Source: a phage
Strand: one strand, 5' to 3'
DNA: 64,000 nt
Assembly (NCBI GenBank): GCA_032430995.1
Contig: GCA_032430995.1_3952.1
The notes under the pieces were generated by a model. It saw nothing but the letters and a program-made list of their open reading frames with translations, was not told the origin of the DNA and ran no database searches. The stretch's first letter is position 1. Each line of letters starts with the position of its first letter. A program made the translations under genes and the position numbers. This document shows positions 3,278-53,736 of this stretch, piece by piece.

Positions 3278-3306
3278 TTGACATTGAGATGTGACTACTT
3301 TATAGT
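3278..3306 (+). promoter_or_regulatory. sigma70-like promoter (TTGACA-N17-TATAGT) internal to tRNA array
   Basis: consensus -35, 17 nt spacer, TATAGT -10. Confidence 0.5.
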
Positions 3307-3508
3307 AACCTTAGTTTTCGTTGCGTAGCGTCTATTTTGCAAATTTAAAATAAATGCAAACGACAATGTTTTTCTGGCAGTAGCTTGATAGGCTAAACAC
3401 CAGTGAGGTCTTCCAATCCCTCATCAAAGAATTTGGCGTACTCGCCCACGGTATGATTAATAAGGTGGGCATCTTTAAGGGCTTTCTAAGAGAGTCTTTA
3501 AAGATAAT

Positions 3509-3585
3509 GCACCCTTAGTTCAATTGGATAGAGCAACGGTCTTCTAAATCGTTAGTTACAGGTTCGAATCCTGTAGGGTGTACCA
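3509..3585 (+). tRNA. tRNA-Arg (anticodon UCU)
   Basis: acceptor GCACCCT/AGGGTGT, anticodon stem ACGGT/ATCGT loop CTTCTAA, T-arm CAGG-TTCGAAT-CCTG, CCA. Confidence 0.65.
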
Positions 3586-3727
3586 AATAGTTAGCAGATT
3601 ACTTAGACGGCCTTAGCGGGTCTTCCTGTAGGGAGGTGGTCTGTATCTCATGTTTTCCAGAACATGTAAATAATCTGAGAAGGAGCTTGACAGTGTTGAG
3701 ATAACAGGGTAAGCTTCGAATTATAAT

Positions 3728-3810
3728 ATGGGACGATGTTAAGACTCTAAGGCATGAGCAACGGCCTCCAAAACCGTTTCAAAGGGGTTCAACTCCTCCG
3801 TCCCATGCCA
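3728..3810 (+). tRNA. tRNA, anticodon uncertain (possibly Trp CCA; enlarged anticodon loop)
   Basis: perfect acceptor ATGGGAC/GTCCCAT, T-loop TTCAACT, CCA; anticodon stem AACGG/CCGTT closes a 9 nt loop CCTCCAAAA. Confidence 0.4.
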
Positions 3811-3823
3811 AAGTCTTATTAGG

Positions 3824-3911
3824 GGTAGGTAGCGGCTAATGGTAGCCAAACTGTCTTGAAAACAGTTGCCACTGTAGAGATACGGTGAGGGTTCGACTCC
3901 TTTACTTACCG
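3824..3911 (+). tRNA. tRNA-Ser (anticodon UGA), long variable arm
   Basis: 88 nt; acceptor GGTAGGT/ACTTACC, anticodon stem ACTGT/ACAGT loop CTTGAAA, long variable arm, T-arm GAGGG-TTCGACT-CCTTT. Confidence 0.65.
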
Positions 3912-4061
3912 CCTAATAAGATTTACTCCGTCCATGCTTGTTCGCATTGTCGGTTTATCCCTCGTGTATTGTCGTACACTGTCAAAGCACCTAGTAGGTG
4001 TCACGGAGAAGAGATAATATCAAGCTCTCCAAAGGTTCTAGTCACCGGATTAAACAAGACT

Positions 4062-4086
4062 ATGCAAAGACCTATTTAGGTCTTTT
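4062..4086 (+). terminator. intrinsic-terminator-like hairpin inside tRNA array
   Basis: AAGACC-TATTTA-GGTCTT stem-loop followed by a T run. Confidence 0.4.
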
Positions 4087-4167
4087 TAGAGGGCTTCTAA
4101 GGTTATTAGTCGCTTGTTGTGGAACCTTGTTGCTTAGGTTCTTAGAAGTTCTCTAAAAAGATTTAAT

Positions 4168-4245
4168 GGGAGATTGACGGTAATTGGTAAACCTACCATC
4201 CTTAGAAGTTGGTGTTTGAGGGTTCGAATCCCTTGTCTCCTACCA
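4168..4245 (+). tRNA. tRNA, anticodon apparently UAG (Leu-type) but short variable arm
   Basis: acceptor GGGAGAT/GTCTCCT, T-arm GAGGG-TTCGAAT-CCCTT, CCA; anticodon loop CTTAGAA; class I length. Confidence 0.4.
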
Positions 4246-4252
4246 AATTAAT

Positions 4253-4328
4253 GCAGGTGTAGCAAAATGGTTATGCGGCTGACTCTTAATCAGTAAGACG
4301 ATGGGTTCAATTCCCTCCACCTGTACCA
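4253..4328 (+). tRNA. tRNA-Lys (anticodon CUU)
   Basis: anticodon stem GCTGA/TCAGT loop CTCTTAA, T-loop GGGTTCAATTCCC, CCA. Confidence 0.55.
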
Positions 4329-4334
4329 AACATT

Positions 4335-4410
4335 GGGGATGTAGTTTACATGGTTAAAACATAAGTTTTGCAAACTTAAGTACAGGGTTCAATTCCCTGC
4401 TTCTCCACCA
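4335..4410 (+). tRNA. tRNA-Ala (anticodon UGC)
   Basis: anticodon stem TAAGT/ACTTA loop TTTGCAA, T-arm CAGGG-TTCAATT-CCCTG, CCA. Confidence 0.6.
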
Positions 4411-4416
4411 ATTAGT

Positions 4417-4491
4417 GCATCCATAGTTTAAACGGGAAAATTACAGTCTTCCAAACTGAGGTTGAGGGTTCGATTCCCTCTGGATGCTCCA
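4417..4491 (+). tRNA. tRNA-Gly (anticodon UCC)
   Basis: acceptor GCATCCA/TGGATGC, anticodon loop CTTCCAA, T-arm GAGGG-TTCGATT-CCCTC, CCA. Confidence 0.6.
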
Positions 4492-4497
4492 AACAAT

Positions 4498-4574
4498 GCT
4501 GCTTTCGTATAATTGGCTATTACACATCCCTTGTAAGGATGGAAATGCAGGTTCGAGTCCTGTGAGCAGCACCA
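4498..4574 (+). tRNA. tRNA-Thr (anticodon UGU)
   Basis: anticodon stem CATCC/GGATG loop CTTGTAA, T-arm GCAGG-TTCGAGT-CCTGT, CCA. Confidence 0.65.
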
Positions 4575-4670
4575 ATTCAGAGGTCAAGTGAAAGACCGCT
4601 TTGAGTCAACTGAAGACCGTAACAAATACCACGGAGTTGAGTTAGCGGCACAACTTCAGACCTCTTTCAT

Positions 4671-4745
4671 ACTCGCTTAGTTTATATGGTAAAACATCAC
4701 CCTTACAAGATGAAGAAAAAGGTTCAAGTCCTTTAGTGAGTACCA
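4671..4745 (+). tRNA. tRNA-Val (anticodon UAC)
   Basis: acceptor ACTCGCT/AGTGAGT, D-stem GTTT/AAAC, anticodon loop CTTACAA, T-arm AAAGG-TTCAAGT-CCTTT, CCA. Confidence 0.6.
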
Positions 4746-4746
4746 T

Positions 4747-4824
4747 GTTCCAGTATCCCAATTGGCAGAGGATGCAAGCTCAAACCTTGTATTAGTGACG
4801 GTTCGAATCCGTCTTGGAACACCA
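4747..4824 (+). tRNA. tRNA with Leu-type anticodon CAA, class I length
   Basis: acceptor GTTCCAG/TTGGAAC, anticodon stem GCAAG/CTTGT loop CTCAAAC, T-arm GACGG-TTCGAAT-CCGTC, CCA; no long variable arm. Confidence 0.5.
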
Positions 4825-4829
4825 ATTTT

Positions 4830-4905
4830 GCAGGATTAGTTCAAATGGAAAGAGCAACAGTCTACGAAGCTGTTAATAGGGGTTCGAATCCCTTATCCTG
4901 CGCCA
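4830..4905 (+). tRNA. tRNA-Arg (anticodon ACG)
   Basis: perfect acceptor GCAGGAT/ATCCTGC, anticodon loop CTACGAA, T-arm GGGGTTCGAATCCC, CCA. Confidence 0.7.
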
Positions 4906-4922
4906 GATAAAAAGGTGATACT

Positions 4923-5165
4923 ATGCAAACATTAACAGTAGTTGAACATGAAAACTGTGAGAGTATTGAGTTTGTCAGGGTCATTGGTGTTGAACACCAC
5001 ATTTTCTTAAAAGTGGGATACTTATGCGACCCCGCTAGAGTAGAAAGATTTATACGTGATTGTTTTGGTGGTAGACATCTGAAGAGTGTTATTTTTGAGA
5101 CAGTTTTACCAGAAGGTTTAGAAACGAATAATAACATTTACCTCCTTACGAGGATTAGACAATGA
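4923..5165 (+). CDS. hypothetical small protein inside tRNA array
   Basis: 80 aa ORF with AAGGTGA RBS 6 nt upstream of ATG; sits in a tRNA-free gap. Confidence 0.4.
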   Translation: MQTLTVVEHENCESIEFVRVIGVEHHIFLKVGYLCDPARVERFIRDCFGGRHLKSVIFETVLPEGLETNNNIYLLTRIRQ

Positions 5166-5719
5166 GATACTTAAAGTATGCTTCATGGATTTTCTTAGCT
5201 TTGTTAGAGCCATTTGCAGCAATCTTAGCAGTTATCTTAGCACCTTTTGTAGTTCCATTCTACAGTGAGAAGAAAGGACACTTACCTTTCGGGTTCAGAT
5301 GGATGGAGACATATGACAACCCAATTGATGGTGATGAAGGTCACGTTAAAAGATGGGCTAATATTAGATGGGTTGGTAAACTAGGTGTCTACATGCAAAG
5401 AGTCGGATGGCTCTGGAGAAACAAAGCTTATAACTTCTCTTACCATGTATTAGGAAGAGATGTAAGAGATGTTACTAAGTGGAAAGGTAATATCAACGTA
5501 AGTTCTAACCCTGAAGATAATCAGACTGGTTATCTCCTAATGTGGAACAGTAATGCTTGGGGATTATTCGCTTTTATCCCATCAATTAAAGTCTTCGGTA
5601 AACAGTTTTACTGGAGAATTTATGTTGGATGGAAACTTAAAAGTGTTGTCCCAGAAGAAAGAGCATTCTCAAGGGAAAGAGTTATGTTGGCATTCTTTAT
5701 TCATCCACTGAGAAAGTAA
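5162..5719 (+). CDS. hypothetical membrane protein
   Basis: 185 aa ORF overlapping upstream stop (ATGA); hydrophobic N-terminal segment; Trp/Tyr-rich. Confidence 0.5.
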   Translation: MRYLKYASWIFLALLEPFAAILAVILAPFVVPFYSEKKGHLPFGFRWMETYDNPIDGDEGHVKRWANIRWVGKLGVYMQRVGWLWRNKAYNFSYHVLGRDVRDVTKWKGNINVSSNPEDNQTGYLLMWNSNAWGLFAFIPSIKVFGKQFYWRIYVGWKLKSVVPEERAFSRERVMLAFFIHPLRK

Positions 5720-5727
5720 AGATTTAA

Positions 5728-5803
5728 AGGGGATTAGTTTACAAGGTTAAAACCTCGGTCTTTGAAATCGAAGAAGTTGGTTCAATTCCAACATCCCCCG
5801 CCA
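5728..5803 (+). tRNA. tRNA-Gln (anticodon UUG)
   Basis: D-stem GTTT/AAAC, anticodon stem TCGGT/ATCGA loop CTTTGAA, T-arm GTTGG-TTCAATT-CCAAC, CCA. Confidence 0.6.
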
Positions 5804-5805
5804 AT

Positions 5806-5884
5806 GCTCCATTACTCCAATTGGCAGAGAGGCCAGACTTAAAATCTGTGTTATGTATCGGTTCGAATCCGATATGGAGTACCA
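5806..5884 (+). tRNA. tRNA with Leu-type anticodon UAA, class I length
   Basis: acceptor GCTCCAT/ATGGAGT, anticodon loop CTTAAAA, T-arm ATCGG-TTCGAAT-CCGAT, CCA. Confidence 0.5.
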
Positions 5885-5889
5885 AATTT

Positions 5890-5965
5890 AGCGGTATAGC
5901 ATAACTGGCAATGCAGCAGTCTCTGAAGCTGTCCTATTAAGGTTCAAATCCTTATGCCGCTGCCA
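5890..5965 (+). tRNA. tRNA-Gln (anticodon CUG)
   Basis: D-stem GCAT/ATGC, anticodon stem GCAGT/GCTGT loop CTCTGAA, T-arm TAAGG-TTCAAAT-CCTTA, CCA. Confidence 0.55.
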
Positions 5966-5996
5966 CTTCTAAGGATTCTTACGAGAGTCCTTAAAT

Positions 5997-6072
5997 GTGG
6001 CCTTATCATAAATGGTAATGACCCATGCTGTGAACATGGTCTATACGGGTTCAAATCCCGTAGGTCACCCCA
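5997..6072 (+). tRNA. tRNA-His (anticodon GUG)
   Basis: anticodon stem CCATG/CATGG loop CTGTGAA, T-arm CGGG-TTCAAAT-CCCG, CCA. Confidence 0.65.
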
Positions 6073-6077
6073 ATTTA

Positions 6078-6154
6078 TAGTCCAAGTAGCTTATATGGTT
6101 AAAGCGCGTGTCTGAAAAACATGAGAAGAGGGTTCAAATCCCACTGGACTACCA
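6078..6154 (+). tRNA. tRNA-Phe (anticodon GAA)
   Basis: acceptor TAGTCCA/TGGACTA, anticodon stem CGTGT/ACATG loop CTGAAAA, T-loop GGGTTCAAATCCC. Confidence 0.6.
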
Positions 6155-6170
6155 ATTTCAAAGGTGCTTA

Positions 6171-6905
6171 ATGAAAGAGATGACAGAACAAGGTAAGGAG
6201 ATTTTCAATCTCTTAAAAACCGGTAAAGGGTTTTCTAACCCCCTTATTACTGGTGCAGCAGTTCTCGGTGGAACCGTAGCTGCCTCTACATCACTTGTAA
6301 GCTCTATTAGCTCTGTATCAGACCCTACAGTAAAGGATAAGCTTGTTGCTGCTGGACTTACAACAGTTCTGCTTAACAGCTTTACCACGAGTCTGACAAG
6401 CACTACATCAACCACCAAAACACTAACAGATTACGGTCAAAAGTCCATTGATGAGTTTTCATCACGTATGCAGGTAGCAAAAGGTTACTCTAATGTTATG
6501 GGTGCAGCAGGTGAACAAGTTGGCTGTACACCATTTAGTGGTATTATGGGTGTTGCTACAGAGTATGGTCAAAAAGCTATTGATACGATTAACAGTGCAC
6601 TAGACGGTGTTAATGGTGTGTTAAGTGACTTACAAGACGCTATTGACAAAGGTCTTGATACTATTTCTGATTTAGCTAACCAAGCTGTTAGTAAGATTAA
6701 TGAAGGTATCTCAAAGATTACAGCTTATGCAGATGAAGTTGTGCAGATGATTGAAGAAGAAGCTGCTCTTATTGCAGAGTACCTTAAAACGAATATCAAT
6801 GGGTTCTTAGCAGGTATCTTACCAGACTGGTTTGATGATGCTTGTAAAACTGGTGTAATTGACACTATTGCAACACCAGAAATGAAGAGCGCATTACAGA
6901 AATAA
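6171..6905 (+). CDS. hypothetical protein (Ser/Thr-rich N-terminal half, predicted helical C-terminal half)
   Basis: ORF track frame 6108-6905 trimmed to ATG 6171 because 6078-6154 is tRNA-Phe; RBS AAAGG upstream. Confidence 0.5.
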   Translation: MKEMTEQGKEIFNLLKTGKGFSNPLITGAAVLGGTVAASTSLVSSISSVSDPTVKDKLVAAGLTTVLLNSFTTSLTSTTSTTKTLTDYGQKSIDEFSSRMQVAKGYSNVMGAAGEQVGCTPFSGIMGVATEYGQKAIDTINSALDGVNGVLSDLQDAIDKGLDTISDLANQAVSKINEGISKITAYADEVVQMIEEEAALIAEYLKTNINGFLAGILPDWFDDACKTGVIDTIATPEMKSALQK

Positions 6906-6906
6906 T

Positions 6907-6999
6907 GGAAGATTAACCCTAAAAGGTAAGGGAGCAGTTTGCTAAACTGCCAGTAGCTGAGAAATCGGTGTACCAGTTCAAGTCTGGTATCTTCCTCCA
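6907..6999 (+). tRNA. tRNA-Ser (anticodon GCU), long variable arm
   Basis: 93 nt; perfect acceptor GGAAGAT/ATCTTCC, anticodon stem GCAGT/ACTGC loop TTGCTAA, long variable arm, T-arm ACCAG-TTCAAGT-CTGGT, CCA. Confidence 0.7.
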
Positions 7000-7003
7000 A
7001 TTT

Positions 7004-18780: not shown

Positions 18781-18781
<1 letters not shown>
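18542..18781 (+). CDS. tail assembly chaperone frameshift extension (GT-like C-terminal part)
   Basis: 79 aa ORF in -1 frame relative to 18141-18539, ending at tape measure start. Confidence 0.5.
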
Positions 18782-24165
<5,384 letters not shown>

Positions 24166-32143: not shown

Positions 32144-32689
32144 TCAAAAGTGTCCTTTTACTTGTGGAACATAAATTTCAAAAGTTGCTTTACCATCCTC
32201 TGATGGTTTTGACTGTACCTTTGTAAACACACGGTTATCATACAGCTTCTCAAAGAAGTTTTCAAAAGGTAAATGCACAGTGGCCTCTTCAGTAACTTTA
32301 TGGAAAACAGTATGGAACACCACACTAGCATACGGTAAAGCATTGACAAGGATACCTGCACCACCAATTACAAAGACATCTTCATCAATAGAGCTATCAA
32401 GATACTTCAAAAATGCTCCAAATGACTCTTTACTGGCTTTAGCATACATTACATCATCTTTGCCAAAGTCTATACCTAAGTATGGTACAGAATTTGTTAA
32501 GATGAGGTTTGCACGTTCTGGTAAAGGTTTACTACCCAGAGTCTTAAAAGTCTCATTACCCATGACTACTAAGTTATTTTTAGTGAGTCTCTTAAACTCT
32601 TGCATGTCCTGTTTATGTCGAGGCCACGGCATACCAGTCGGTGTACCAAATTCACCGTTTTCACCACTTGCAAATATTAGCTTAATCAT
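32144..32689 (-). CDS. folA: dihydrofolate reductase
   Basis: 181 aa; DHFR hallmarks (IFASGENGEFG; PWPRHKQDMQEFKRLT; VVMGNETF); coupled to thyA. Confidence 0.85.
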   Translation of the reverse strand: MIKLIFASGENGEFGTPTGMPWPRHKQDMQEFKRLTKNNLVVMGNETFKTLGSKPLPERANLILTNSVPYLGIDFGKDDVMYAKASKESFGAFLKYLDSSIDEDVFVIGGAGILVNALPYASVVFHTVFHKVTEEATVHLPFENFFEKLYDNRVFTKVQSKPSEDGKATFEIYVPQVKGHF

Positions 32690-32946
32690 TTTGTAAACCC
32701 TTTCTTAATGAACCAGTTGATAACATTCTTCACAGCTTTATTGCTATGGTAGATTAAGTGTGGTGTAGGTTGGTATGAACCATAAGCCCAGAAAGCAATG
32801 ATTTCATTACACTCTGTACACCTTGTACTCTCTTCAGCGATATGACCGTTGACTATTTCACTTACCTCGCCTTGCAAGTCTGTACACCCACAATGTGGAC
32901 ATCGGATAGGTGTTCCGTCAGGCTCATAGCAGTGTTCAATTTTCAT
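32686..32946 (-). CDS. zinc-ribbon protein (4 Cys)
   Basis: 86 aa with CPHC...C...CTEC arrangement. Confidence 0.45.
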   Translation of the reverse strand: MKIEHCYEPDGTPIRCPHCGCTDLQGEVSEIVNGHIAEESTRCTECNEIIAFWAYGSYQPTPHLIYHSNKAVKNVINWFIKKGFTK

Positions 32947-33462
32947 TTATTTAACCTCAAAAACTGGTTCAAGAACCAATATAAAGTCTACACAGTCATC
33001 TTCTTCATCCAGAATACCATCAAAGTTCTTAGGAACGAAGTCGAAGAGGCTCATCACAAAACAGTCAGAAGTAACCCTGATAGTTCCTCCAATGTTCTCT
33101 ACAGTCAACACTGTACGACTTTCTTTTACCTCCCTCAGAAGATTACTCACAAAGTCATCTAAGAAGTACTTCATCAGTGACTTAAAACCTTTAGGATAAT
33201 CTGTACCAGAGTATGTTTCAATCTGAGGTACAAGCTTAACATTTATACTAGTCTTTGTTAAGAACGTGCTAGAGAACATACTATCAGGTAGCTTACAAAC
33301 AGTCTTTCCAGTACCTTCATGTTCAATCTCAACAAAACCAGCTTCATCGCCACATGTAACTATTTTAAAAGATGCTTCATTATCACCCTGTGAAGCCATA
33401 AACTTTTTAAGCATCACTTTAAGGAAATCTGCATGAGCATCTTGTAAGTATATATCAATCAT
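32947..33462 (-). CDS. hypothetical protein
   Basis: 171 aa ORF in minus-strand early block. Confidence 0.5.
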   Translation of the reverse strand: MIDIYLQDAHADFLKVMLKKFMASQGDNEASFKIVTCGDEAGFVEIEHEGTGKTVCKLPDSMFSSTFLTKTSINVKLVPQIETYSGTDYPKGFKSLMKYFLDDFVSNLLREVKESRTVLTVENIGGTIRVTSDCFVMSLFDFVPKNFDGILDEEDDCVDFILVLEPVFEVK

Positions 33463-33475
33463 AATTCATTACCTA

Positions 33476-33835
33476 TTATGGGAACAGACATTTGATGTCA
33501 TCGTTTTTGAAAACGAAGCTTGTGTAGTTGTGACCGTCAACATCCAGCCAAACAGCCTGAACATCTACACCATCAAGATTGTGGTAAAGCTCTTTGATGA
33601 AGTGGTCTTTCACAATCTGGCTGCTAGTTGTCTCCAGCTTAATGTTAGAGATTGCCGAACCTACAGCCATATAACCCATGACACGTTTCTTCTCAGTATG
33701 CTTAATCTTACCATCTTTGTAAGCCATAATGAGATTGGAGAGAATCTTCACACCATAATACTTTTCAAGGTGAGTAGGTGCACCATAAAAGCCTAATGCA
33801 AAGTTTTCAGAGTGGATAATGTTTTCACGTTTCAT
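33476..33835 (-). CDS. hypothetical protein
   Basis: 119 aa ORF. Confidence 0.5.
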   Translation of the reverse strand: MKRENIIHSENFALGFYGAPTHLEKYYGVKILSNLIMAYKDGKIKHTEKKRVMGYMAVGSAISNIKLETTSSQIVKDHFIKELYHNLDGVDVQAVWLDVDGHNYTSFVFKNDDIKCLFP

Positions 33836-33836
33836 A

Positions 33837-34166
33837 TTAATCTGCCAGCCTTAAATTAAAATTAACACCAAATTTTTCGCATACTTCCAACATATACTCA
33901 AGCGAGACATTTCCAGTGAGGTGGATTATGTTGGATACACGAGCCTGAGAGATACCACAAATTTTAGCAACTTGCTCTTGAGAAAGACCTCTGGATTTAA
34001 TCTCTCTCTTAAAACGATGTGCAACGAAATCTCTCATTTCGTCTACATCCATTGGACAAATATAACTCTCCATTTCAGCCTCTCTGTCAGCCTCCCAATC
34101 ATCTTGTGGAGCATAAGGGTCAAAAACCTCATTCATCTTTCTTCTTCCGTTTGCGTGAAGTGTCAA
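33837..34166 (-). CDS. helix-turn-helix DNA-binding protein (XRE-like, putative)
   Basis: 109 aa; C-terminal segment LSQEQVAKICGISQARVSNI resembles HTH. Confidence 0.5.
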   Translation of the reverse strand: MTLHANGRRKMNEVFDPYAPQDDWEADREAEMESYICPMDVDEMRDFVAHRFKREIKSRGLSQEQVAKICGISQARVSNIIHLTGNVSLEYMLEVCEKFGVNFNLRLAD

Positions 34167-34341
34167 TCAATGAATCTATGTTTGTAGCCCTAACCTTTTC
34201 ACGTTCATCGTTAAGATAATCGTCAAGAATCTTTTCAATCTGTGAATCATCTTGACAGATAACTGTAAAGACTGTAAAGCCGTCTGTATCATCAATTATC
34301 TTACCATAACCGCTTCTGGGATGTAACTTTTTAAGAGCCAT
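34129..34341 (-). CDS. hypothetical small protein
   Basis: 70 aa ORF overlapping neighbours. Confidence 0.35.
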   Translation of the reverse strand: MALKKLHPRSGYGKIIDDTDGFTVFTVICQDDSQIEKILDDYLNDEREKVRATNIDSLIDTSRKRKKKDE

Positions 34342-34342
34342 A

Positions 34343-34726
34343 TCAAATACCTGTGCAGCTTCTGTTTTCTAAGAAATACTCAACACCATACATAGCTTTT
34401 TGCATCAAATCTTCTTTAAACTGAATACGATGATTGAGCATAGCCTGTACATCAATATCATCAGGGTGCTTCTCTTTAATGTTTGCAGATTGCAGGAAAT
34501 ACTCTGCAAGAACGCGATATTGATAGCCAGTCACCTTATCAGTCATCTCTGTTAAAGACTCTTCAGAGATTGGTTTAAGTAGTTCGCCATTAGCTAGAGC
34601 AACACCTTTAACAATCTGACAAGTGTCTTCTGGAACACCTGATAAGTCCACATTTGGAAGTTCTGTTGCATTGACTGGTAAATTCATTGCCATAACCATT
34701 GCAGCAGCTAATAAAATCTTTTTCAT
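34343..34726 (-). CDS. secreted/periplasmic protein with signal peptide
   Basis: 127 aa; N-terminus MKKILLAAAMVMAMNLPVNATE is a classical Sec signal peptide. Confidence 0.55.
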   Translation of the reverse strand: MKKILLAAAMVMAMNLPVNATELPNVDLSGVPEDTCQIVKGVALANGELLKPISEESLTEMTDKVTGYQYRVLAEYFLQSANIKEKHPDDIDVQAMLNHRIQFKEDLMQKAMYGVEYFLENRSCTGI

Positions 34727-34817
34727 AATGACCTCAAAGTTATATTAAATTTTGTATTACATTGAGTATAAAAATAAGCTATAACACCTGACTTGTCAAC
34801 AGATTTTATAGCTTATT

Positions 34818-35092
34818 TGGCAGATTTTTTATAAGGCTACTGCCATCCTTCCATACCTCACCACACAAGACCAGACCATGCCGTACTCCACATCACCGTA
34901 CATCACTTAAAAACCCTTTTCAAAGACTCTTAAGTGATGTAATCGAATTTTTATGTAGCTCCGATTAACTACCCATACCATACAAAGCCATACCCAACCA
35001 AACATTACCGCACCATACAGAACCGTACCTAACCTGACATAGCCGCACCTTACCTTGTTAAAAGACCCTCTTAAAAGACCTTTTAAAAAGGA
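34818..35092. repeat. G-poor composite repeat region, copy 1 (shares modules with 36226-36495)
   Basis: shared blocks: GGCAGATTTTT..GGCTACTGCCATCC..CCATACC; hairpin CATCACTTAAAAACCC...TTAAGTGATG; TGTAGCT..ACTACCCATACC; TTAAAAGACCCTCTTAAAAGACCTTTTAAAAAGG. Confidence 0.75.
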
Positions 35093-35118
35093 GCCTCCGA
35101 AGAGGCTGCCTAGTCAAC

Positions 35119-35559
35119 TTAGAAAGGTTTTCTGCGTTGCTTGTTAATGTTAGCTTTCATAGCAGCTAAGTGGTTTTGCTGTTCAATTAGTCGTGAACGT
35201 TCTTGGTGGCTAAGTGCCATAGTGTTCACATTCTCAATCGCTTGAGTAGCTTGCTTTAAAGCACGACCAATTTTACCAGACATTTTGCGTTTTGCAATAG
35301 TTGCTTGATGCTTAGGTTCAACCACACGATAACCAACACCCATTGAAGCAACCAGATAAATCTTCTCTTCTTTAAGAAGCTTCTCAATAAACTTCTCAAG
35401 TCGGTTTAGGCGTGTAAGTGCATAAGCCTTCATTTCATCTTCGTACTTAACAATGTCACCTTGATAAGTTGGCTTCACAATACCTAAGAAGGTATCCATC
35501 TCAGAATGTGATACAGTGTCACCGTAACTAAACTTTGCTGCTAATGCTTTTGTATTCAT
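35119..35559 (-). CDS. hypothetical basic protein (cassette gene 2)
   Basis: 146 aa, Lys/Arg-rich C-terminus. Confidence 0.5.
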   Translation of the reverse strand: MNTKALAAKFSYGDTVSHSEMDTFLGIVKPTYQGDIVKYEDEMKAYALTRLNRLEKFIEKLLKEEKIYLVASMGVGYRVVEPKHQATIAKRKMSGKIGRALKQATQAIENVNTMALSHQERSRLIEQQNHLAAMKANINKQRRKPF

Positions 35560-35561
35560 AA

Positions 35562-36167
<606 letters not shown>

Positions 36168-36225
36168 TTAGTTGATTGTTAAGTTGTTTGTAAAGAACCC
36201 TCAACAGAGGACTCTTTAGAAACTT

Positions 36226-36495
36226 GGTAGATTTTTAACGTGGCTACTACCATCCACCCATACCGCGACACACCGAACCAGACCTTACACCACCTTACAC
36301 CACCCCACCTCATTAAAAGACCCTCTTAAAAGGCCTTTTAAAAAGGTAAGTCTCATTTTAATGTAGCTGAGACTAACTACCCATACCTCACATCACCGCA
36401 CCATACTACACCTGACACCACCTTACACCACCGCACCATACCTGACCGAGCTACACATCACTTAAAAACCCTCTTAGAAAGACTCTTAAGTGATG
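36226..36495. repeat. G-poor composite repeat region, copy 2
   Basis: same modules as copy 1 but in permuted order; plus strand nearly devoid of G over about 250 bp. Confidence 0.75.
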
Positions 36496-36710
36496 CTGGT
36501 GAGTACCTGTTGGTTTATGCTGCTCAGTATACTCACCAAATTTTCTATGTCAACAGCTTTTTATATAAAAGTCCTGATAGCTATATGTGTCACGAAACAA
36601 AAGATTGTAAACAAGACACCCATTGCAAAAGATGTGTCCAAAAGCTTACTTGCAACGTATGACAATACAAAGACAACCAGTATAAACAGAATGACTGTAC
36701 TGAACATAGT

Positions 36711-37850
36711 TTATTCATAATCCCTAATAACTAGCCCGACAGGAAACTGTAAAGAACCCTTACGAGTCATCTTCTGGAACTGAACCGTTAAAGGCTTCCC
36801 AATAAACTCTTCAGGATGCTCAGCAAGATACTGTTTCTTCTCATGAGTAGTCTTCCATGAGACATCTACAAAGACGTTAGGAAGAGTCTCTACAACGAAC
36901 TTGCCATGACCACGCTTATCAGTCTTTACACCAGTCACTTTAAACTCTTCAGTGTGCATCTTCTTGTGCTTAATCAAGAAGTATGAACGGTGACAGCACT
37001 CATAGAAGGAGTCTTCAGAGATTGAACGGTACATTGCACCTTCAAACTTAGCTTCAACCCACTTATCATGAGCTTCATCAAACTCTTCCCAAGAATTTAC
37101 ACGACGAGACTTAACAGGAACAACTTTACAGCCGTCTCTAAAGTCATTCAATGGTGAAGTCTCAATAATATCTCTACGCTCAGGCCACGTCTTAGTACTG
37201 TCACAGATATCATACCAGTAAAACTTAAGTAGATGACGGTCAGGATTGTCTTCATTTTTAATCATAGAGACAATATCTTCTAAGTCCCACCCATGAGCAT
37301 AAATCTCACCATCAAATTCATCAACATCTTTGTGGAGCCTTAACATTGCCATAATGTCAGGTATTAGCTCAGTGGGGATTTTATAAACAGTATTCTCACG
37401 AGAGTATGCTGTAAATACACTACCAATGCTTAAGTGTCTTGAAATTCTACAACGGACACCATCAAGTTTTGGTTGAGCGTCAGCAGGGAACTTCAGATAC
37501 TTTGCATGACTAACCTTTGCAGCATCATGAGCAAGCTGTACACCTACCTTCTCAGTATTCTGTGCAGACTCTTTTGTGTAAGCATAACCTTTGCGGTCAA
37601 CTTGTTTTTTATACTTAGCAGCAACTTCAAAGAGAGCTTGTTGTTCAGCGTTACGCTCATTCTTTTTACCGATGTTTTTAGGTTCTGCTGTATACTCTTC
37701 AAACATCATCTTGCCATTTTCTTTGCCATACGTGGTAACAACTTTGTCACCTACAGCGACACATGACCAGACGTTAAAAGAGCCATCTTTATTTTGTTTG
37801 TATAGAATTGTCATTTTATTCCTCTGAGTGATACAAAGTATTGCAAGCAT
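36711..37850 (-). CDS. ATP-dependent DNA ligase (putative)
   Basis: 379 aa; nucleotidyltransferase motif I KLDGVR (KxDGxR). Confidence 0.6.
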   Translation of the reverse strand: MLAILCITQRNKMTILYKQNKDGSFNVWSCVAVGDKVVTTYGKENGKMMFEEYTAEPKNIGKKNERNAEQQALFEVAAKYKKQVDRKGYAYTKESAQNTEKVGVQLAHDAAKVSHAKYLKFPADAQPKLDGVRCRISRHLSIGSVFTAYSRENTVYKIPTELIPDIMAMLRLHKDVDEFDGEIYAHGWDLEDIVSMIKNEDNPDRHLLKFYWYDICDSTKTWPERRDIIETSPLNDFRDGCKVVPVKSRRVNSWEEFDEAHDKWVEAKFEGAMYRSISEDSFYECCHRSYFLIKHKKMHTEEFKVTGVKTDKRGHGKFVVETLPNVFVDVSWKTTHEKKQYLAEHPEEFIGKPLTVQFQKMTRKGSLQFPVGLVIRDYE

Positions 37851-38007
37851 TACATGCGTAAAGCTCTAAGTCATTTTTATCTGGTTTATGAAAACAGTTT
37901 GCTCCGCAGTGGCAACGAAATGGCTTTCCACCAACTGTAAGGATGAAGGATTGAACCTTTCCATCAGGAGTTCGTACAGCATTTTTATGTTTATCTTCTT
38001 TGTTCAT
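37816..38007 (-). CDS. small zinc-ribbon protein
   Basis: 63 aa; CHC...C...C..C pattern; paralog of 38377-38547. Confidence 0.45.
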   Translation of the reverse strand: MNKEDKHKNAVRTPDGKVQSFILTVGGKPFRCHCGANCFHKPDKNDLELYACNACNTLYHSEE

Positions 38008-38068
38008 TTTATCTCTTGCCTCACAAGCTATGCAACCTTTTGAGTAGAAGTAGTGCCAAGCACAACCA

Positions 38069-38335
38069 TCAAAGCTCTCTTTCGTGATTAATTGAATTTA
38101 CTAATTCCATGTGTTTTTCGTAGAAACATAAACATTTTTTATCTTGCTCATTTATGTAGCTCTCATAAAATTCTGGTGATTCTGGTCTTTCACCAAATGA
38201 AATAACCTTTAGGTAGTACTTCCCATATGTAGAGCTATCTAACCAAGAGTCAAATAGTAATTTCTTAGTATTAGTCTTTGGAGGGATTACCAGACTTTTC
38301 TCATACAATCCCTTCATTTCTTGAGTTATCTTCAT
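38069..38335 (-). CDS. hypothetical protein
   Basis: 88 aa; AAGGAT RBS within tandem-repeat leader. Confidence 0.45.
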   Translation of the reverse strand: MKITQEMKGLYEKSLVIPPKTNTKKLLFDSWLDSSTYGKYYLKVISFGERPESPEFYESYINEQDKKCLCFYEKHMELVNSINHEREL

Positions 38336-38349
38336 TGCATATCCTTAAT

Positions 38350-38382
38350 CTTACCTAAGAACCTTACCTAAGAACCTTACCC
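38350..38382. repeat. 13 bp tandem repeat (CTTACCTAAGAAC x2.5)
   Basis: direct tandem copies in the leader of gene 38069-38335 (minus). Confidence 0.7.
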
Positions 38383-38547
38383 ACAGTTATTACACTCGTA
38401 TATGTCTAACTTTGTGTTATCAGGTTTGTGAAAACAGTTTGACCCACAACGACACCGGAATAGCTTACCATCAACACGAAGAATGAATGTTTCAAGCTCA
38501 CCATCTTCTGTAAGAACTGCGTTCTTAAATTTATCTTCTACAGTCAT
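38377..38547 (-). CDS. small zinc-ribbon protein (paralog of 37816-38007; below ORF-track length cutoff)
   Basis: own translation of minus strand: MTVEDKFKNAVLTEDGELETFILRVDGKLFRCRCGSNCFHKPDNTKLDIYECNNCG; start overlaps upstream stop (ATGA). Confidence 0.4.
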   Translation of the reverse strand: MTVEDKFKNAVLTEDGELETFILRVDGKLFRCRCGSNCFHKPDNTKLDIYECNNCG

Positions 38548-38750
38548 TTTCTCTTACCACCAATCTCTACGTCAATAACTTGAACATCACCAGCAACATC
38601 AAACTTATGAATGATGCTTTCCACAGTGTAAGTCCAACCATCGATTCTAACCAACTCACCCTCTCGTGGGACGATTGGGTTACGTTGAGCTACCGTTGTA
38701 GTGGAGTGAACAACATCATAACAGTAGATATAGTTTATTAAGACCTGCAT
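38544..38750 (-). CDS. hypothetical protein (start placed at internal Met)
   Basis: track ORF 38544-38849 overlaps upstream ORF; internal ATG at 38750 removes the overlap. Confidence 0.3.
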   Translation of the reverse strand: MQVLINYIYCYDVVHSTTTVAQRNPIVPREGELVRIDGWTYTVESIIHKFDVAGDVQVIDVEIGGKRK

Positions 38751-38760
38751 CGTAAAAACC

Positions 38761-38994
38761 TCACTCAATAACCGTAGTGTGTGATTGGCTATTTTTACCA
38801 TATCTATAAGATGTTGTTGTTTGAGAGTTTGGACATCTGACAACAACAATATCTGTGCTTATTGCATCCCCATTTAACTTATAGACTTTGCAATCTTGCA
38901 TCTCTGGTGGGAGGCTATAAGAAGCGTTTTTGTCCTCGTAAGATGGGTTACAGCCAGACAGAAAGATAACACCAACACAATTACTGCTTTCCAC
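38761..38994 (-). CDS. small Cys-rich protein with possible lipobox (lipoprotein candidate)
   Basis: 77 aa; N-terminal VGVIFLSGC resembles a lipobox but n-region lacks basic residues. Confidence 0.3.
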   Translation of the reverse strand: MESSNCVGVIFLSGCNPSYEDKNASYSLPPEMQDCKVYKLNGDAISTDIVVVRCPNSQTTTSYRYGKNSQSHTTVIE

Positions 38995-39183
38995 ATAATA
39001 CTTCTCCTATTACTGTTCACGATGTTCTACCTCTCTGTACGTTCGTCGATAGTTTATAATAAGCTGTGCTAATTCATTGCTTTTAACATCTGAACGTAGC
39101 AGTTGCCAATCAAAACCTTTACCGACTCTTCCATATAAACTAAATAATTTTACTTTGCGTTTCATTTTGATGTCCCCCAATAC

Positions 39184-39411
39184 TCAGAGGTCAATACTAA
39201 TACGTTCACCCTTAAGGACTCCTGTACGGTCCCTTGCAATCTTACCGTCAACAATAAGGATATGTGCAGACCTTAAAGATTCACTATTAAAACCTTTTAC
39301 GAACTTACTAGGCATAACCACAATAAGCATCTCCTGAATCAACTCTGGAGTATAGCAGTTGTCGTGAAGTTGCTGAATAACGTCTGCAAGTGTCATTTTT
39401 GATGTCTCCAA
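39184..39411 (-). CDS. hypothetical protein
   Basis: 75 aa ORF. Confidence 0.4.
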   Translation of the reverse strand: METSKMTLADVIQQLHDNCYTPELIQEMLIVVMPSKFVKGFNSESLRSAHILIVDGKIARDRTGVLKGERISIDL

Positions 39412-39602
39412 TACTCAATGTCAATAAGTTCTTGTGCAATGCTTTTCAGATTACCTTTCAAGAAAACCTTCTCAGAACCTGAAAGAGATGAATTGTCAAT
39501 CAACCTGTTCATTCTCTCAAACAACTTCTGCTTACGATTCTTGATAGTTTCCTTTGAAGCACCTTTCATCATCGCTGCATGGGTTCTTCCACGGTGGCTC
39601 AT
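39393..39602 (-). CDS. hypothetical basic protein
   Basis: 69 aa ORF. Confidence 0.4.
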   Translation of the reverse strand: MSHRGRTHAAMMKGASKETIKNRKQKLFERMNRLIDNSSLSGSEKVFLKGNLKSIAQELIDIEYWRHQK

Positions 39603-39663: not shown

Positions 39664-42363
39664 TTAGTGTACTTCAAGCCAGCTTTTACCAACCTTACCA
39701 GTACCTGTTACAAGTGTTTCTTTCTTTAGACCTAAGTTCTTAGAAGCTTGTCCATAATACCAGTCGGTAACTGCTTTCACTTCTGCCGTCATACTTTCTG
39801 GACATTCCCAACTTGTTTCATCGTGATATGCACAGAGTAAACGAGCACCAATAGCTGGTTGACGACCATTTAACTTCATCAAACCTTCGTCAATCATACG
39901 ACGACAAGCAAGGTTAATTGCCTCATTTTGAATCTGAGCCTCTGAACCCATCAAAAGATAGTTCAACAGTTTGTGTGGAGATTTACACCACAACCAAGCT
40001 CCAGCAACCTTTACAAATCCCCCTTTAGAGATTGCAGCGGTCTTACCAAACACCTCTTCAAGTGCCTTTTTAGTTGCTTTGTAGTCAGCTTCCAAGTCAT
40101 CCAGCAGCTTCTTAATCTTAGGTAAACGAATAAAGTAAGTCTGTTTAGTCAGTGCACCTTCCTGAGTAGTTGCAGCTTTAATCGTCTTAGCAAACTTCTC
40201 ATCACCTGCACCGAACAGCAGTGCATAGATACCATTCTTAGCTTTCTTACGACCCTTGCTAATCTCATGGAGAAGGTTCTCATCCTGAGTAGCTCGACAA
40301 GTCAAGATATCCTGCTCATCATTCAAGCTAAAGTAAATGCTGTTCAGTGTGTGTGCATCAGTCCCTGAATAGACAACGTACAGGTCATTCTCAGAGTCAT
40401 AGCGGAGGTACTTATCAATCTCTGGGTTGAGGTACTCATCAAAGTGTTTGCAGTAATAGCGTCCATCTTCTTGACGAATAAACTCAATCTCTTCTTTACC
40501 TTGCGTTACCGCTTTGGTGAAGTCTTTGTCACCCATAAAGTTACAAAGAAGAACTAGCTGGGCTGAGTTCATATCTACAGAGACGACGTTAGTACCTTCT
40601 TCACAAATCCACACTGCCCTCATTGGTTCCCCATAGACAGCAGCACCAGACGGTACGTTTACAATACCATATTGTGTCATACGTCCAGTTGAAGTACCAA
40701 ATACCATTGCACCAGCACTAAGGCGACCATCTGGACGAATCTGGTTTAGCCAACCTTTTTCATCATCCTTTGAGTTCTCAATGGTTCTGCGTCGGTGCAT
40801 CAAAGTATAGTATTTAGCAATCTTCTGTCCAAGCTCACCTTCAATCGTATCATAAGAAGATTCAGTAAGTTTTGGTGAAGTACGGATTAAGCAAGGTTCA
40901 AGCAAATCCGTGTACTTCTTCACAGACCAGTTATGTTCGATGTACTGGACACCTTCGTGTTCAACATAACTCAACCCACACCGTTCAACCATCTCCTGCC
41001 ACTTAGGATGCTTTGTAATCATCTTTTTGTTGTCTTTGAAACGACAAACTTTGACAGGGCGACCGTCTGAATCTTTCTTGTAGTTCCAGTCATCTGGAAT
41101 CCAACCAACTGATTTCAAGTAGTCTTTAACAACTGCTACCTGAGTCATACGAGAAACTTCAAACTCAATTGGTGTATATGGTGCATCAATCAATCCTGTG
41201 TAGCGACTTGACTCAAGCTCAAAGTGGTTAACAACATGACTGTTATAGTACTTCACAGTTTTAACTGTTTTTACTGGCTTCCAGTCTTTGCATTTCTTAC
41301 CAATCTTTGCATTCAACTCATTGCAAATTGCACGAGCATCCTTCATTGCTACAAAACCTTCCTTGTACTCTTCACCAGTTACAGAGTTGGTTGGTGTATA
41401 GCAATTTCTCTTTTCAATGTTAAAAATCTTTGTAGTTGGCTTACCAAATGGCTTGATTTCATATGTCTGCATCTCACCGTTACGTACCTGCTGACGATAC
41501 TTTGTCTTAGGGTACTTGGTAATTCTCTTCAGTCCATCTGCGTGACCAAATGCTTCAACATACTCATTCCAAGCTTTTGCAAACTCTTCTCCAGTGACTT
41601 TACCTTTGGTCTTAATAGTTGGAGGAAGATGTGGTTCAACTTCCGAAGCAAGCTCATTAGTCAACTTGTCAAGTTCCTTTACATGGAACTCCATAAGCTC
41701 TTTATCAGCTTTCCAACCATTGATAGCTTGTTGACTCATCCAGAAAGATGTTTCTTTAGCTCGCATGTAGGTTTCATAAGTGTCTATGCCACACTTCTTA
41801 AGCTTGAGATATTCATTATCAAGTGCCCGTTTAGTTTTGGCGTTAATACGGATATCTTCTACAACACGAGTGAAGATTTCTGCATTCCACACACCCCAAT
41901 GTTCAATCTCTGGTTTACGAACACCAACACGAGCACCCCATGCAGCCAAACCATGAGCACCTTTATAACCCTTTGGAGTTGGTCTATCCATCCACTGAAC
42001 ACGAGACTGGATAAGAGAATCCTGAAAGAAATTACTCCACGGCTTACATTTTGGATTATCAAAGTTCCATAAATCCGGTGCAATGTGATTGAAGACCCAC
42101 CAGTCATAACCGAGGCCGTTATGGATACAAAGTCGTTTTGCCTTTAACGCAAACTCAACACCTTCACGTAAACCACCCTTAATGTACTTAGTGTACTTGT
42201 GACCGAGGATAGGCTCATCTGTAAAGACCCATACAGGTGGCTCTTCATCGTCAGATTTATAATCTGCGAAAGCCATTACGTGAACTTTAGTGAACTCAAG
42301 GAGTAAACCATCAGTTTCTGTATCACCAACTAAATGTAAGTTTTTAAAATCTACGTTTTCCAT
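39664..42363 (-). CDS. DNA polymerase, family A, with 3'-5' exonuclease domain
   Basis: Exo I motif DTETDGL; pol motif B-like K..NGIYALLFGAG and motif C-like YHDE; start set to ATG with GAGGGAG RBS (track start 42393). Confidence 0.8.
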   Translation of the reverse strand: MENVDFKNLHLVGDTETDGLLLEFTKVHVMAFADYKSDDEEPPVWVFTDEPILGHKYTKYIKGGLREGVEFALKAKRLCIHNGLGYDWWVFNHIAPDLWNFDNPKCKPWSNFFQDSLIQSRVQWMDRPTPKGYKGAHGLAAWGARVGVRKPEIEHWGVWNAEIFTRVVEDIRINAKTKRALDNEYLKLKKCGIDTYETYMRAKETSFWMSQQAINGWKADKELMEFHVKELDKLTNELASEVEPHLPPTIKTKGKVTGEEFAKAWNEYVEAFGHADGLKRITKYPKTKYRQQVRNGEMQTYEIKPFGKPTTKIFNIEKRNCYTPTNSVTGEEYKEGFVAMKDARAICNELNAKIGKKCKDWKPVKTVKTVKYYNSHVVNHFELESSRYTGLIDAPYTPIEFEVSRMTQVAVVKDYLKSVGWIPDDWNYKKDSDGRPVKVCRFKDNKKMITKHPKWQEMVERCGLSYVEHEGVQYIEHNWSVKKYTDLLEPCLIRTSPKLTESSYDTIEGELGQKIAKYYTLMHRRRTIENSKDDEKGWLNQIRPDGRLSAGAMVFGTSTGRMTQYGIVNVPSGAAVYGEPMRAVWICEEGTNVVSVDMNSAQLVLLCNFMGDKDFTKAVTQGKEEIEFIRQEDGRYYCKHFDEYLNPEIDKYLRYDSENDLYVVYSGTDAHTLNSIYFSLNDEQDILTCRATQDENLLHEISKGRKKAKNGIYALLFGAGDEKFAKTIKAATTQEGALTKQTYFIRLPKIKKLLDDLEADYKATKKALEEVFGKTAAISKGGFVKVAGAWLWCKSPHKLLNYLLMGSEAQIQNEAINLACRRMIDEGLMKLNGRQPAIGARLLCAYHDETSWECPESMTAEVKAVTDWYYGQASKNLGLKKETLVTGTGKVGKSWLEVH

Positions 42364-42423
42364 TTTTACTCCCTCTAAAATCATTAACCTCATACATTAC
42401 TGCAAAAAATTATAAAAAGCAAG

Positions 42424-53681: not shown

Positions 53682-53736
53682 TTTTAACAACTATGAGGGT
53701 CGTAAAAGACCCTCTAAAAATAACTTTGGAGAGACC

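Follow-up and report, generated by a model that had tools for sequence, protein, structure and literature searches.

The phage contig GCA_032430995.1_3952.1 (64,000 nt; NCBI GenBank assembly GCA_032430995.1), hereafter the window, contains 18 co-directional minus-strand open reading frames (ORFs) between the genes for dihydrofolate reductase (32144-32689) and DNA polymerase (39664-42393). We interpret this block (32686-39602) as an early minus-strand unit of a Felix O1-like myovirus, and its core (34819-36553) as a complete type II VIPR (Viral Interference Programmable Repeat) locus of the SUSP1 clade, a reading to which we give a probability of about 0.88. The core displays every defining feature of the published VIPR family that can be examined in a sequence, and VIPR is a kind of system that is already known, if very recently described. 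Promoter, leaders, tails, Vipr and Vap1 are all present, and the system is apparently intact. An initial annotation, made from the letters of the window, had treated the block as purely protein-coding and held that nothing in it could be assigned from sequence; it overlooked the repeats in the intergenic gaps, inside which lie four guide RNA arrays, and a DNA ligase, Vipr, Vap1, the four guide RNAs and their predicted targets have now been assigned.

VIPR was first described in 2026 preprints (bioRxiv 10.64898/2026.04.26.720920 and 10.64898/2026.04.26.720927) as a form of RNA-guided DNA recognition that may predate CRISPR. Its parts are a minimal RAMP protein, Vipr (with RRM core, G-loop and thumb), an accessory Vap protein, and guide RNAs (vrRNAs) of ~100 nt, each with 9-16 YNNGG units and, after them, a conserved tail, which in the SUSP1 clade takes the form of a pseudoknot. 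The natural targets of that clade lie mostly in a satellite phage, and it is for SUSP1 only that the preprints report vrRNAs to be expressed, to co-purify with Vipr, and to silence transcription.

The block is ~94% identical in nucleotide sequence to Escherichia phage vB_EcoM_E9 and matches ~260 Felix O1-like records, on which grounds we take the window to be a Felixounavirus genome. Between ~30 and 42 kb the GC skew is negative, in keeping with transcription from the minus strand, and in Felix O1 the genes 96-80 (DNA polymerase to thymidylate synthase) have been proposed to form a unit that starts at early divergent promoters (PMC3185647). All 18 ORFs match PHROG families (E<=6e-19, most at E<=1e-32) and are therefore real and conserved genes, the small minus-strand ORFs listed in the initial annotation among them. 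The non-coding share of the block amounts to ~0.94 kb (34727-35118 and 36165-36560), and holds the four vrRNA arrays with their 5-nt periodicity. The genes, guide RNAs and transcription signals of the block described below lie on the minus strand.

Vipr, Vap1 and the guide RNA genes

A search of PDB sequences with the 200-aa ORF at 35562-36164 retrieved 36pp_D, "SUSP1 Vipr protein" (phmmer, E=1.7e-127). Read from its true start, ATG 36149, the gene vipr (35562-36149) encodes a 195-aa RAMP-like protein that is identical to 36pp_D at 190 of 195 positions over its full length (97.4%; E=1.5e-127). The residues with which SUSP1 Vipr contacts RNA and DNA, reading GGY plus the skipped base, are listed in 10.64898/2026.04.26.720927, and the window protein has H17, K33, E71, M72, R138, C173, D177, W178 and R179, all with unchanged numbering; position 175 is V both here and in the PDB chain, where the preprint text names T175. 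Two nucleotides downstream of vipr lies vap1 (35119-35559), whose basic 146-aa product (isoelectric point, pI, 9.9) is identical at 145 of 146 positions (99.3%) to the SUSP1 gene product at the same position; Vap1 enhances VIPR protection in SUSP1 and is predicted to bind DNA (2026 bioRxiv preprints).

With tblastn, vipr was found in 130 phage records. The 118 at >=90% identity are all of Ounavirinae type, and the other 12, at <60% identity, are Pseudomonas, Gordonia, Mycobacterium and Listonella phages. Proteins 100% identical to the window Vipr are present in other phages, and all the annotated phage records that were examined call Vipr a "hypothetical protein". Set against the ~260 records that match the block, the 118 at >=90% identity imply that about half of the Felix O1-like records are without vipr.

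The four arrays were found by reading the minus strand of the two gaps and scanning for 5-nt periodicity. Two (U1, U2) lie upstream of vipr and two (D1, D2) downstream of vap1, and each vrRNA gene consists of a 5' leader, 10-17 YNNGG units and a 32-nt pseudoknot tail. Upstream of U1, U2, vipr and vap1 stands a sigma-70-type promoter (36526-36553; TTGACA-16-TATACT) that agrees with the consensus at 11 of 12 positions, scores best in the region, and is the same in sequence and place in SUSP1 and DE17. The leader of U1 forms an 18-bp hairpin (36456-36495; CATCACTTAAGAG...TTAAGTGATG; -16.5 kcal/mol) conserved in SUSP1, E9, LMP34 and ASO1B, and vrRNA U1 itself (36349-36455) has 15 units (36455-36381), with NN dinucleotides GT TC CA AT GC GG AA GG CA GT AT GC GA GA AT, and a tail at 36380-36349. 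The U2 leader (36313-36346; hairpin of -12.1 kcal/mol) contains the motif AAGAGGGTCTTTTAA and is followed by vrRNA U2 (36226-36312), with 11 units (36312-36258) and a tail, GTGGATGGTAGTAGCCACGTTAAAAATCTACC, identical to that of SUSP1 vrRNA1; the ORF at 36179-36313 is a mechanical artefact of this array.

Directly 3' of vap1 is a terminator-like hairpin of the intrinsic type with a T-run (35092-35107). It abuts the D1 leader (35058-35091; AAAAGGTCTTTTAAGAGGGTCTTTTAA), which has the AAGAGGGTCTTTTAA motif in common with the U2 leader, and vrRNA D1 (34941-35057) follows with 17 units (35057-34973) and the tail GTAGTTAATCGGAGCTACATAAAAATTCGATT. A leader hairpin (34901-34939; -15.5 kcal/mol) then precedes vrRNA D2 (34819-34900), with 10 units (34900-34851) and the tail AAGGATGGCAGTAGCCTTATAAAAAATCTGCC. 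The 17 units of D1 are one above the 9-16 range of the preprint, which sets a minimum of >=4. Beyond D2, a promoter-like site (34771-34799; TTGACA-17-TATTTT), which bears a promoter annotation in ASO1B, heads the next operon, whose first gene encodes a secreted protein.

Of 332 units from six phages (the window, SUSP1, E9, JLBYU32, ASO1B and LMP34), 99.7% begin with a pyrimidine, 80% keep the first G and 98.5% the second, and the entropies at NN positions 2 and 3 are 1.90 and 1.84 bits. Because the NN positions vary, the repeat finder TRF recovers mere fragments of the arrays. The tails were compared in a gapless alignment of the four from the window with three variants from relatives: an H-type pseudoknot, ((((..[[[[[...)))).........]]]]], is paired in 63 of 63 cells, with compensatory changes in 8 of its 9 pairs, a covariation equalled in 0 of 500 shuffles, and slid controls are 27-43% paired, the model having been derived from the same sequences on which it was scored. 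The arrays occupy the same positions as those vrRNAs of SUSP1 that were verified by small-RNA sequencing.

The locus is syntenic with the SUSP1 VIPR locus. In addition to the identities of Vipr and Vap1, the two agree in gene order and flanks (DNA ligase upstream, secreted-protein gene downstream), promoter, leader hairpins, the two classes of pseudoknot tail, the YNNGG code and the targeted satellite family. They differ in layout, SUSP1 having one upstream and three downstream vrRNAs against two and two in the window, and in phage genus, SUSP1 belonging to Suspvirus. The guide repertoire differs as well. The last (3') seven units of SUSP1 vrRNA4 recur identically in D2, and the U1 guide is identical in LMP34, whose counterparts of U2, D1 and D2 are different; the U2 and D1 guides were seen in none of the six phages compared. 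Guides thus appear to be exchanged as cassettes, U1 being common to LMP34 and the 3' half of D2 to SUSP1.

Several further observations concern the arrays and their leaders. GenBank records of relatives place short "hypothetical protein" coding sequences on or overlapping the arrays (5028-5141 and 5294-5383 in our E9 locus, L001; 1646-1753 and 2048-2278 in that of LMP34, L012), and elsewhere the arrays are labelled DR_4, repeat_region or "possible binding site of StbAB"; these labels appear to be annotation artefacts of vrRNA genes. The AAGAGGGTCTTTTAA-type leader motif with an upstream AAGGGCTTTCT half-site has six matches in the window against 0.59 expected, one of them at 3488-3502 (+), 6 nt upstream of the tRNA-Arg(tct) gene at 3509, and others at 7756-7770 (+) and 53702-53716 (-); it may serve vrRNAs and tRNAs alike as a promoter or processing signal for small RNAs. 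At the gathering threshold, Rfam found no family in the block and matched solely the tRNA array outside it (1796-7079, +), which holds 26 tRNA genes (26 by ARAGORN, 24 by Rfam) with most amino acids represented.

A satellite family and the predicted guide targets

When the upstream vrRNA region was compared by blastn with 5426 complete E. coli genomes, a U2-type repeat tract with its tail was found in 152 chromosomes, every copy in unannotated DNA. In strain EC12 the tract belongs to a ~12-kb element inserted in yecE, with genes for a serine recombinase, a baseplate protein, a tape-measure protein, an HNH endonuclease and small ORFs. Related elements match 568 of the 5426 genomes and are located at yecE or between tonB and yciI; satellite-bearing strains include EC12 (NZ_CP070229), 20Y000092 (NZ_CP138217) and WP5-S18 (NZ_AP022159). 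The satellite baseplate protein is 75.7% identical in amino acid sequence to the product of window gene 21030-21794 (+), and between the tape-measure proteins of satellite and phage (the latter encoded at 18781-20361, +) the identity is 28.8%. Since these tail-type genes are shared, the element fits a satellite that exploits this phage lineage, and the sharing suggests that the satellite would swap in its own tail components during helper infection.

Satellites were located through their own vrRNA tails and then scanned locally with mismatches allowed, each guide being converted to the pattern NNxNNx... The best match of U1 (28 of 30 NN bases, with 13 interior units perfect) falls in the tape-measure gene of satellite loci L006 and L015, with lesser matches of 27/30 in L008 and L013 and 26/30 in L010. 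U2 matches the tape-measure gene of L009 and L017 at 19 of 22 bases and that of L014 at 18 of 22, and its matches fall in precisely those satellites whose tape-measure allele U1 misses, so that the two guides cover complementary sets of alleles. D1 matches L010 antisense at 31 of 34, in a site that spans two adjoining small genes, and 15 of its interior units are perfect (28/34 in L014); D2 matches the serine-recombinase gene of L010 and L007, the latter a degraded remnant, at 18 of 20. The match rates of U1, U2, D1 and D2 are 93%, 86%, 91% and 90%, where the preprint threshold is >=80%, and perfect interior runs among the guides extend over 13, 15 and 8 units. The predicted target sites of U1 and D1 are TTATCACAGATGGCTGGTAAGGGTCAGGTTATGGCTGAAGAGCT and GGTAACGCATAGCATTAAACCTCCATCGCTAACTTGTGAATCTTGATACT.

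These matches depend on the published code. Skips of 0, 2 or 3 bases instead of 1 gave 14-21 matches only, which is background, and with shuffled unit order the observed match was reached in 0/500, 0/500, 0/500 and 1/500 trials for U1, U2, D1 and D2, respectively. When the gene coordinates are compared, each of the four targets has its skipped bases at codon wobble positions, a pattern that the preprint reports as well. The same satellite loci are matched by SUSP1 vrRNA2 and vrRNA4 and by several E9 guides. No self-target was seen, the best guide match within the 64-kb window being <=70%.

The satellites bear a 14-unit vrRNA of their own (14985-15086 in L006, 11986-12087 in L007 and 10380-10481 in L010), whose tail is identical to the phage U2 tail in L006 and one base off in L007 and L010. 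They have no vipr gene, and presumably borrow the Vipr of the helper phage. A search for the target of this vrRNA in the window and the ten satellite loci gave nothing convincing (best match 23/28).

By homology to SUSP1, one Vipr protomer would bind each YNNGG unit and polymerise on the vrRNA, sequestering GGY and presenting NN. The NN dinucleotides would pair with double-stranded DNA so that every third target base is skipped, and the resulting R-loop or triplex would stop transcription without cutting, an effect that Vap1, basic and predicted to bind DNA, would strengthen. The sigma-70 promoter would drive U1, U2, vipr and vap1, with D1 and D2 lying beyond the vap1 terminator. The guides would be aimed at the ~12-kb integrative E. 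coli satellite with its own tape-measure and baseplate genes and its vrRNA with a phage-type tail: U1 and U2 at alternative alleles of the tape-measure gene, D1 at the junction of two small genes, and D2 at the serine recombinase gene. Because the four guides are directed at one satellite family, the most likely role of VIPR in this phage is the silencing of an element that parasitises its replication. We infer expression of the system, formation of the ribonucleoprotein, silencing and benefit to the phage from its sequence.

Other genes of the block

Besides the VIPR core, the block holds ~13 small genes restricted to Ounavirinae, among them a Zn-ribbon pair, a secreted protein and a frameshifted lipoprotein gene. 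All 18 ORFs were scanned with Pfam and PHROGs, and ten also with NCBIfam; these profiles alone made only two products assignable, a ligase and a helix-turn-helix (HTH) protein. The ATP-dependent DNA ligase (36711-37814; 367 aa from ATG 37814), in a block that the initial annotation had described as devoid of recognisable enzymatic motifs, matches PF01068 (5.7e-7; 29.9 bits, cutoff 26.2) and phrog_114 (3e-97), has KLDG at residue 116, and is annotated as a ligase in relatives; its OB domain, PF14743, scores just under the cutoff (1e-5; 25.9 bits, cutoff 28). The HTH protein, which had been recognised as such, is an HTH_3 (Cro/C1-type) transcriptional regulator (33837-34136; Pfam 6.1e-10, phrog_1373 1.2e-26). 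Between the ligase gene and the VIPR promoter, a 48-aa ORF (36561-36707; phrog_22006, 1.7e-32) encodes a small, very hydrophobic product of membrane type, with a grand average of hydropathy of 1.87.

The two zinc-ribbon paralogs named in the initial annotation are also upheld. Copy A (37816-38007; 63 aa; phrog_5768, 3e-39) and copy B (38377-38547; 56 aa; phrog_5768, 5e-33) are 61% identical in amino acid and ~67% in nucleotide sequence, with C32, C34, H40, C52 and C55 invariant, and between them is an 88-aa ORF (38069-38335; phrog_32421, 5e-54). This arrangement is present in 9 of 175 matching phage records, most phages having a single copy, and DE17 is the nearest relative around these genes (98.2%). 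In the spacer between the 88-aa ORF and copy B (38350-38381) is a perfect 13-bp tandem repeat, CTTACCTAAGAAC, in 2.5 copies, at which this minority cassette may have been joined by recombination. An 86-aa protein (32686-32946; phrog_2993, 9e-42) has the expected four cysteines, as CxxC...CxxC. Its resemblance to the Lar and ECs_2282 zinc ribbons is sub-threshold only: Lar was rejected (TIGR03655 at 19.2 bits against a cutoff of 39.6; PF14354 at 14.5 against 28.6), a CxxC ribbon likeness being all that is left, and the ECs_2282, InsA and piccolo zinc-finger families were likewise rejected because their profile matches fall below threshold.

The claim that the 127-aa protein encoded at 34343-34726 (phrog_4332) carries a Sec signal also held. 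By inspection its signal peptide is of the textbook Sec type (MKKILLAAAMVMAMNLPVNA|TE), with cleavage predicted after VNA20, and its homologs are all >=93% identical. The possible lipoprotein was half right. The family of the gene at 38761-38996 (phrog_902), confined to Ounavirinae-type phages, is a true lipoprotein family, with products that begin MWKAVIV(F/L)GVIFL(S/A)GC in E9, JLBYU32, ASO1B and DE17 and the intact start MWKAVIVFGVIFLSGC in DE17. In the window, the ORF as first given (38761-38994) is the body of this gene, whose true ATG lies at 38996, and both that ATG and the ribosome-binding site AGGAG are intact; relative to DE17, E9, JLBYU32 and ASO1B, one T of a GTTTG run is missing in codon 8 (~38971-38972), by a real change or a homopolymer error, and this 1-nt deletion puts the signal peptide out of frame with ATG 38996. 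No lipobox of the form [LVI][ASTVI][GAS]C stands in frame with a start codon in this gene, and the sole in-frame start, GTG 38994, gives MESSNCVGVIFLSGC, which lacks a positively charged n-region and whose h-region is short. Homologs of the lipoprotein come with a precomputed PF16225 tag, which hmmscan did not reproduce and which was ignored.

An envelope-directed role is plausible for the secreted protein and the lipoprotein. Small phage lipoproteins that act in superinfection exclusion include T5 Llp and the Cor proteins of phi80 and N15, and T4 Spackle is periplasmic. The products of 38761-38996 and 34343-34726 are like these in being small envelope-targeted proteins among early genes, but have no sequence, profile or usable structural similarity to them, and the signal peptide of the lipoprotein is frameshifted in the window. 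Structure prediction and fold search, which had been proposed as a check, were run on the secreted and Zn-ribbon proteins with little return: AlphaFold2 gave a mean confidence (pLDDT) of 44.8 for the mature secreted protein, which is unusable, and 62.8 for the Zn-ribbon protein (seven sequences), for which Foldseek found no match in the PDB better than E=1.6.

The remaining products are known by family only. They comprise a 171-aa acidic protein (32947-33462; phrog_4422), with 6 homologs among 1.84 billion representatives, a 119-aa protein (33476-33835; phrog_4116) and a 70-aa protein (34129-34341; phrog_4473), none of the three with a Pfam or PDB match; a 68-aa ORF (38544-38750; phrog_4427); and, towards the DNA polymerase gene, ORFs of 51 aa (39010-39165; pI 10.2; phrog_2381), 70 aa (39184-39396; phrog_4230) and 69 aa (39393-39602; pI 10.3; phrog_5180). 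Searches of PDB sequences gave no match for the proteins of 171, 146, 127, 119, 63 and 86 aa. Homolog searches with the secreted, lipoprotein, Zn-ribbon and 171-aa proteins returned close Ounavirinae relatives only, too shallow a set for profile or structure work.

Two side observations concern the block in other records. The whole of it, at 94.7% identity and with a 99%-identical Vipr, is found in GU169904.1, "Staphylococcus phage SA1" (147 kb), a record that is probably chimeric or contaminated. Just past the block, several relatives have an HNH or endonuclease VII homing-endonuclease gene at or within the DNA polymerase gene (8057-9495 in JLBYU32, L002; 7933-8445 in ASO1B, L003; 31503-32030 in SUSP1, L005); that of the window is uninterrupted.

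Alternative readings, related systems and implications

Several points weigh against the interpretation of the core as a VIPR system directed at this satellite. The VIPR literature consists of two 2026 preprints from one laboratory. For this phage, the expression, ends and processing of the vrRNAs are predicted, as are promoters for D1 and D2, two genes beyond the terminator, and the helper-satellite relation is deduced from the shared tail genes and the preprint. Ten satellite loci, scanned on both strands, make a small sample, and the matches of U2 (19/22) and D2 (18/20) are little above the shuffled maxima of 17 and 18. IMG/VR as a whole was scanned for an exact copy of the complete D2 target pattern, and none was found. 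Of the 53 window units, 14 (26%) are without G at the first G (TG or AG instead), their NN still matching the target. Finally DE17, the nearest relative in part of the block, is without vipr and vap1, and VIPR is therefore dispensable.

DE17 (L011, OP595146) lacks the whole stretch from U1 to D1, with vipr, vap1 and three vrRNAs in it, by deletion, and retains the promoter. Between its secreted-protein gene and its ligase gene is a chimeric orphan vrRNA (3125-3420 of that locus) with a U1-type leader and a D2-type tail. The orphan guide matches the window vipr gene at 18/22, which was rejected as a target because 18 of 500 shuffles did equally well.

A VIPR locus drifting towards such a loss, inactive or aimed elsewhere and with its satellite matches as relics of inheritance, is the best of the rival readings, and we regard it as improbable. 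The state of DE17, with one chimeric orphan vrRNA left, would suit it, as would the degeneracy of about a quarter of the units at the first G, the occurrence of vipr at >=90% identity in ~118 records against ~260 that match the block, and the frameshift in the lipoprotein gene of the same block. However, degenerate units are also present in the experimentally active vrRNAs of SUSP1; Vipr and Vap1 are intact and near-invariant, with 100%-identical copies of Vipr in other phages; the promoter, leaders and tails are intact; and all four guides keep an NN match of >=86%, with the perfect interior runs given above.

The block might instead be, as first annotated, a set of small early proteins for host takeover, anti-defence and superinfection exclusion, with no RNA part and nothing to assign. 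The ~13 lineage-restricted ORFs, one of them with a signal peptide and another from a lipoprotein family, accord with such a description, which may apply to those ORFs but is refuted as a complete account by the ligase, the HTH protein, Vipr, Vap1 and the four vrRNAs, and to which we give very little credence. The expectation that conflict functions reside in this region fares better, in that the system is one of warfare between mobile elements: RNA-guided transcriptional silencing, as the sequence would have it, of a satellite that parasitises this phage lineage, and not classical anti-defence, host takeover or superinfection exclusion. Least credible of all is that the GGT-rich 5-nt repeats act as DNA, as iterons or as sites for a partition or replication protein, with unrelated hypothetical ORFs beside them, an idea that the GenBank labels in wV8 ('DR_4') and KhF3 ('possible binding site of StbAB') and the partial periodicity seen by TRF might encourage, but that is hard to square with a constant GGY and near-random NN (the opposite of a protein-binding iteron), with 3' tails whose compensatory base-pair changes preserve an RNA pseudoknot, with an adjacent ORF that is 97% identical to a protein whose structure was determined bound to such RNA, and with NN strings that match satellite genes under the published code alone.

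The VIPR system invites comparison with Class 1 CRISPR-Cas (the Cas7 filaments of Cascade and Csm) and with CRISPR interference (CRISPRi), and a kinship of Vipr with CRISPR-Cas through the RAMP proteins is reported in the literature. In both, a RAMP-fold protein polymerises along a guide RNA and its thumb flips bases at intervals, the DNA target is base-paired, and silencing can proceed without cleavage. VIPR differs in being without a repeat-spacer array, cas1/cas2 adaptation genes, a nuclease or a protospacer-adjacent motif; in reading 2 nt per 5-nt unit, with one target base in three skipped; and in having each guide as a separate gene capped by a pseudoknot, not by a repeat handle. The block is not a CRISPR-Cas locus, as it has no CRISPR-type repeats, and Pfam, PHROG and NCBIfam scans of it found no cas families.

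A functional parallel is offered by Vibrio phage ICP1, which reportedly uses a type I-F CRISPR-Cas system against the PLE satellite. There too, an RNA-guided system of a lytic phage targets a chromosomal satellite that parasitises that phage; ICP1, however, has a full CRISPR-Cas with Cas3 degradation and spacer acquisition, whereas the window VIPR has two genes and neither a nuclease nor a known mechanism of acquisition.

Beyond the assignment itself, we entertain a broader proposal, taken jointly and held only tentatively since we consider it more doubtful than not: that the window holds an uncatalogued guide set caught in an arms race, that the leader is a small-RNA signal, and that one or more neighbouring ORFans are anti-satellite or VIPR-modulating factors. 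A guide set in which U1 and U2 cover mutually exclusive tape-measure alleles would be the signature of an ongoing race between guides and targets. The leader, a AAGAGGGTCTTTTAA-type double motif or a hairpin that abuts every vrRNA, may be a phage-specific promoter of small RNAs, or a signal for their maturation, and one or more of the HTH regulator, the Zn-ribbon pair and the secreted protein may be further factors that act on the satellite or modulate VIPR. If true, the U1/U2 set would be useful for working out how vrRNAs originate without machinery of the Cas1/Cas2 type.

The locus also exposes a gap in annotation, in that genome scans keep missing VIPR unless the 5-nt periodicity of intergenic DNA is examined. 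The noncontiguous NNx code is also reproduced in silico, by guides outside the experiments of the preprint: all four resolve to one satellite family, at a skip of 1 only and with wobble positions as the bases passed over, and the phage, satellite and target triplets named here are concrete predictions that can be tested. For the population biology of these phages, guide cassettes vary between near-identical genomes, deletion derivatives keep orphan guides, satellites bear guides with phage-type tails, and vipr is missing from about half of the Felix O1-like records.

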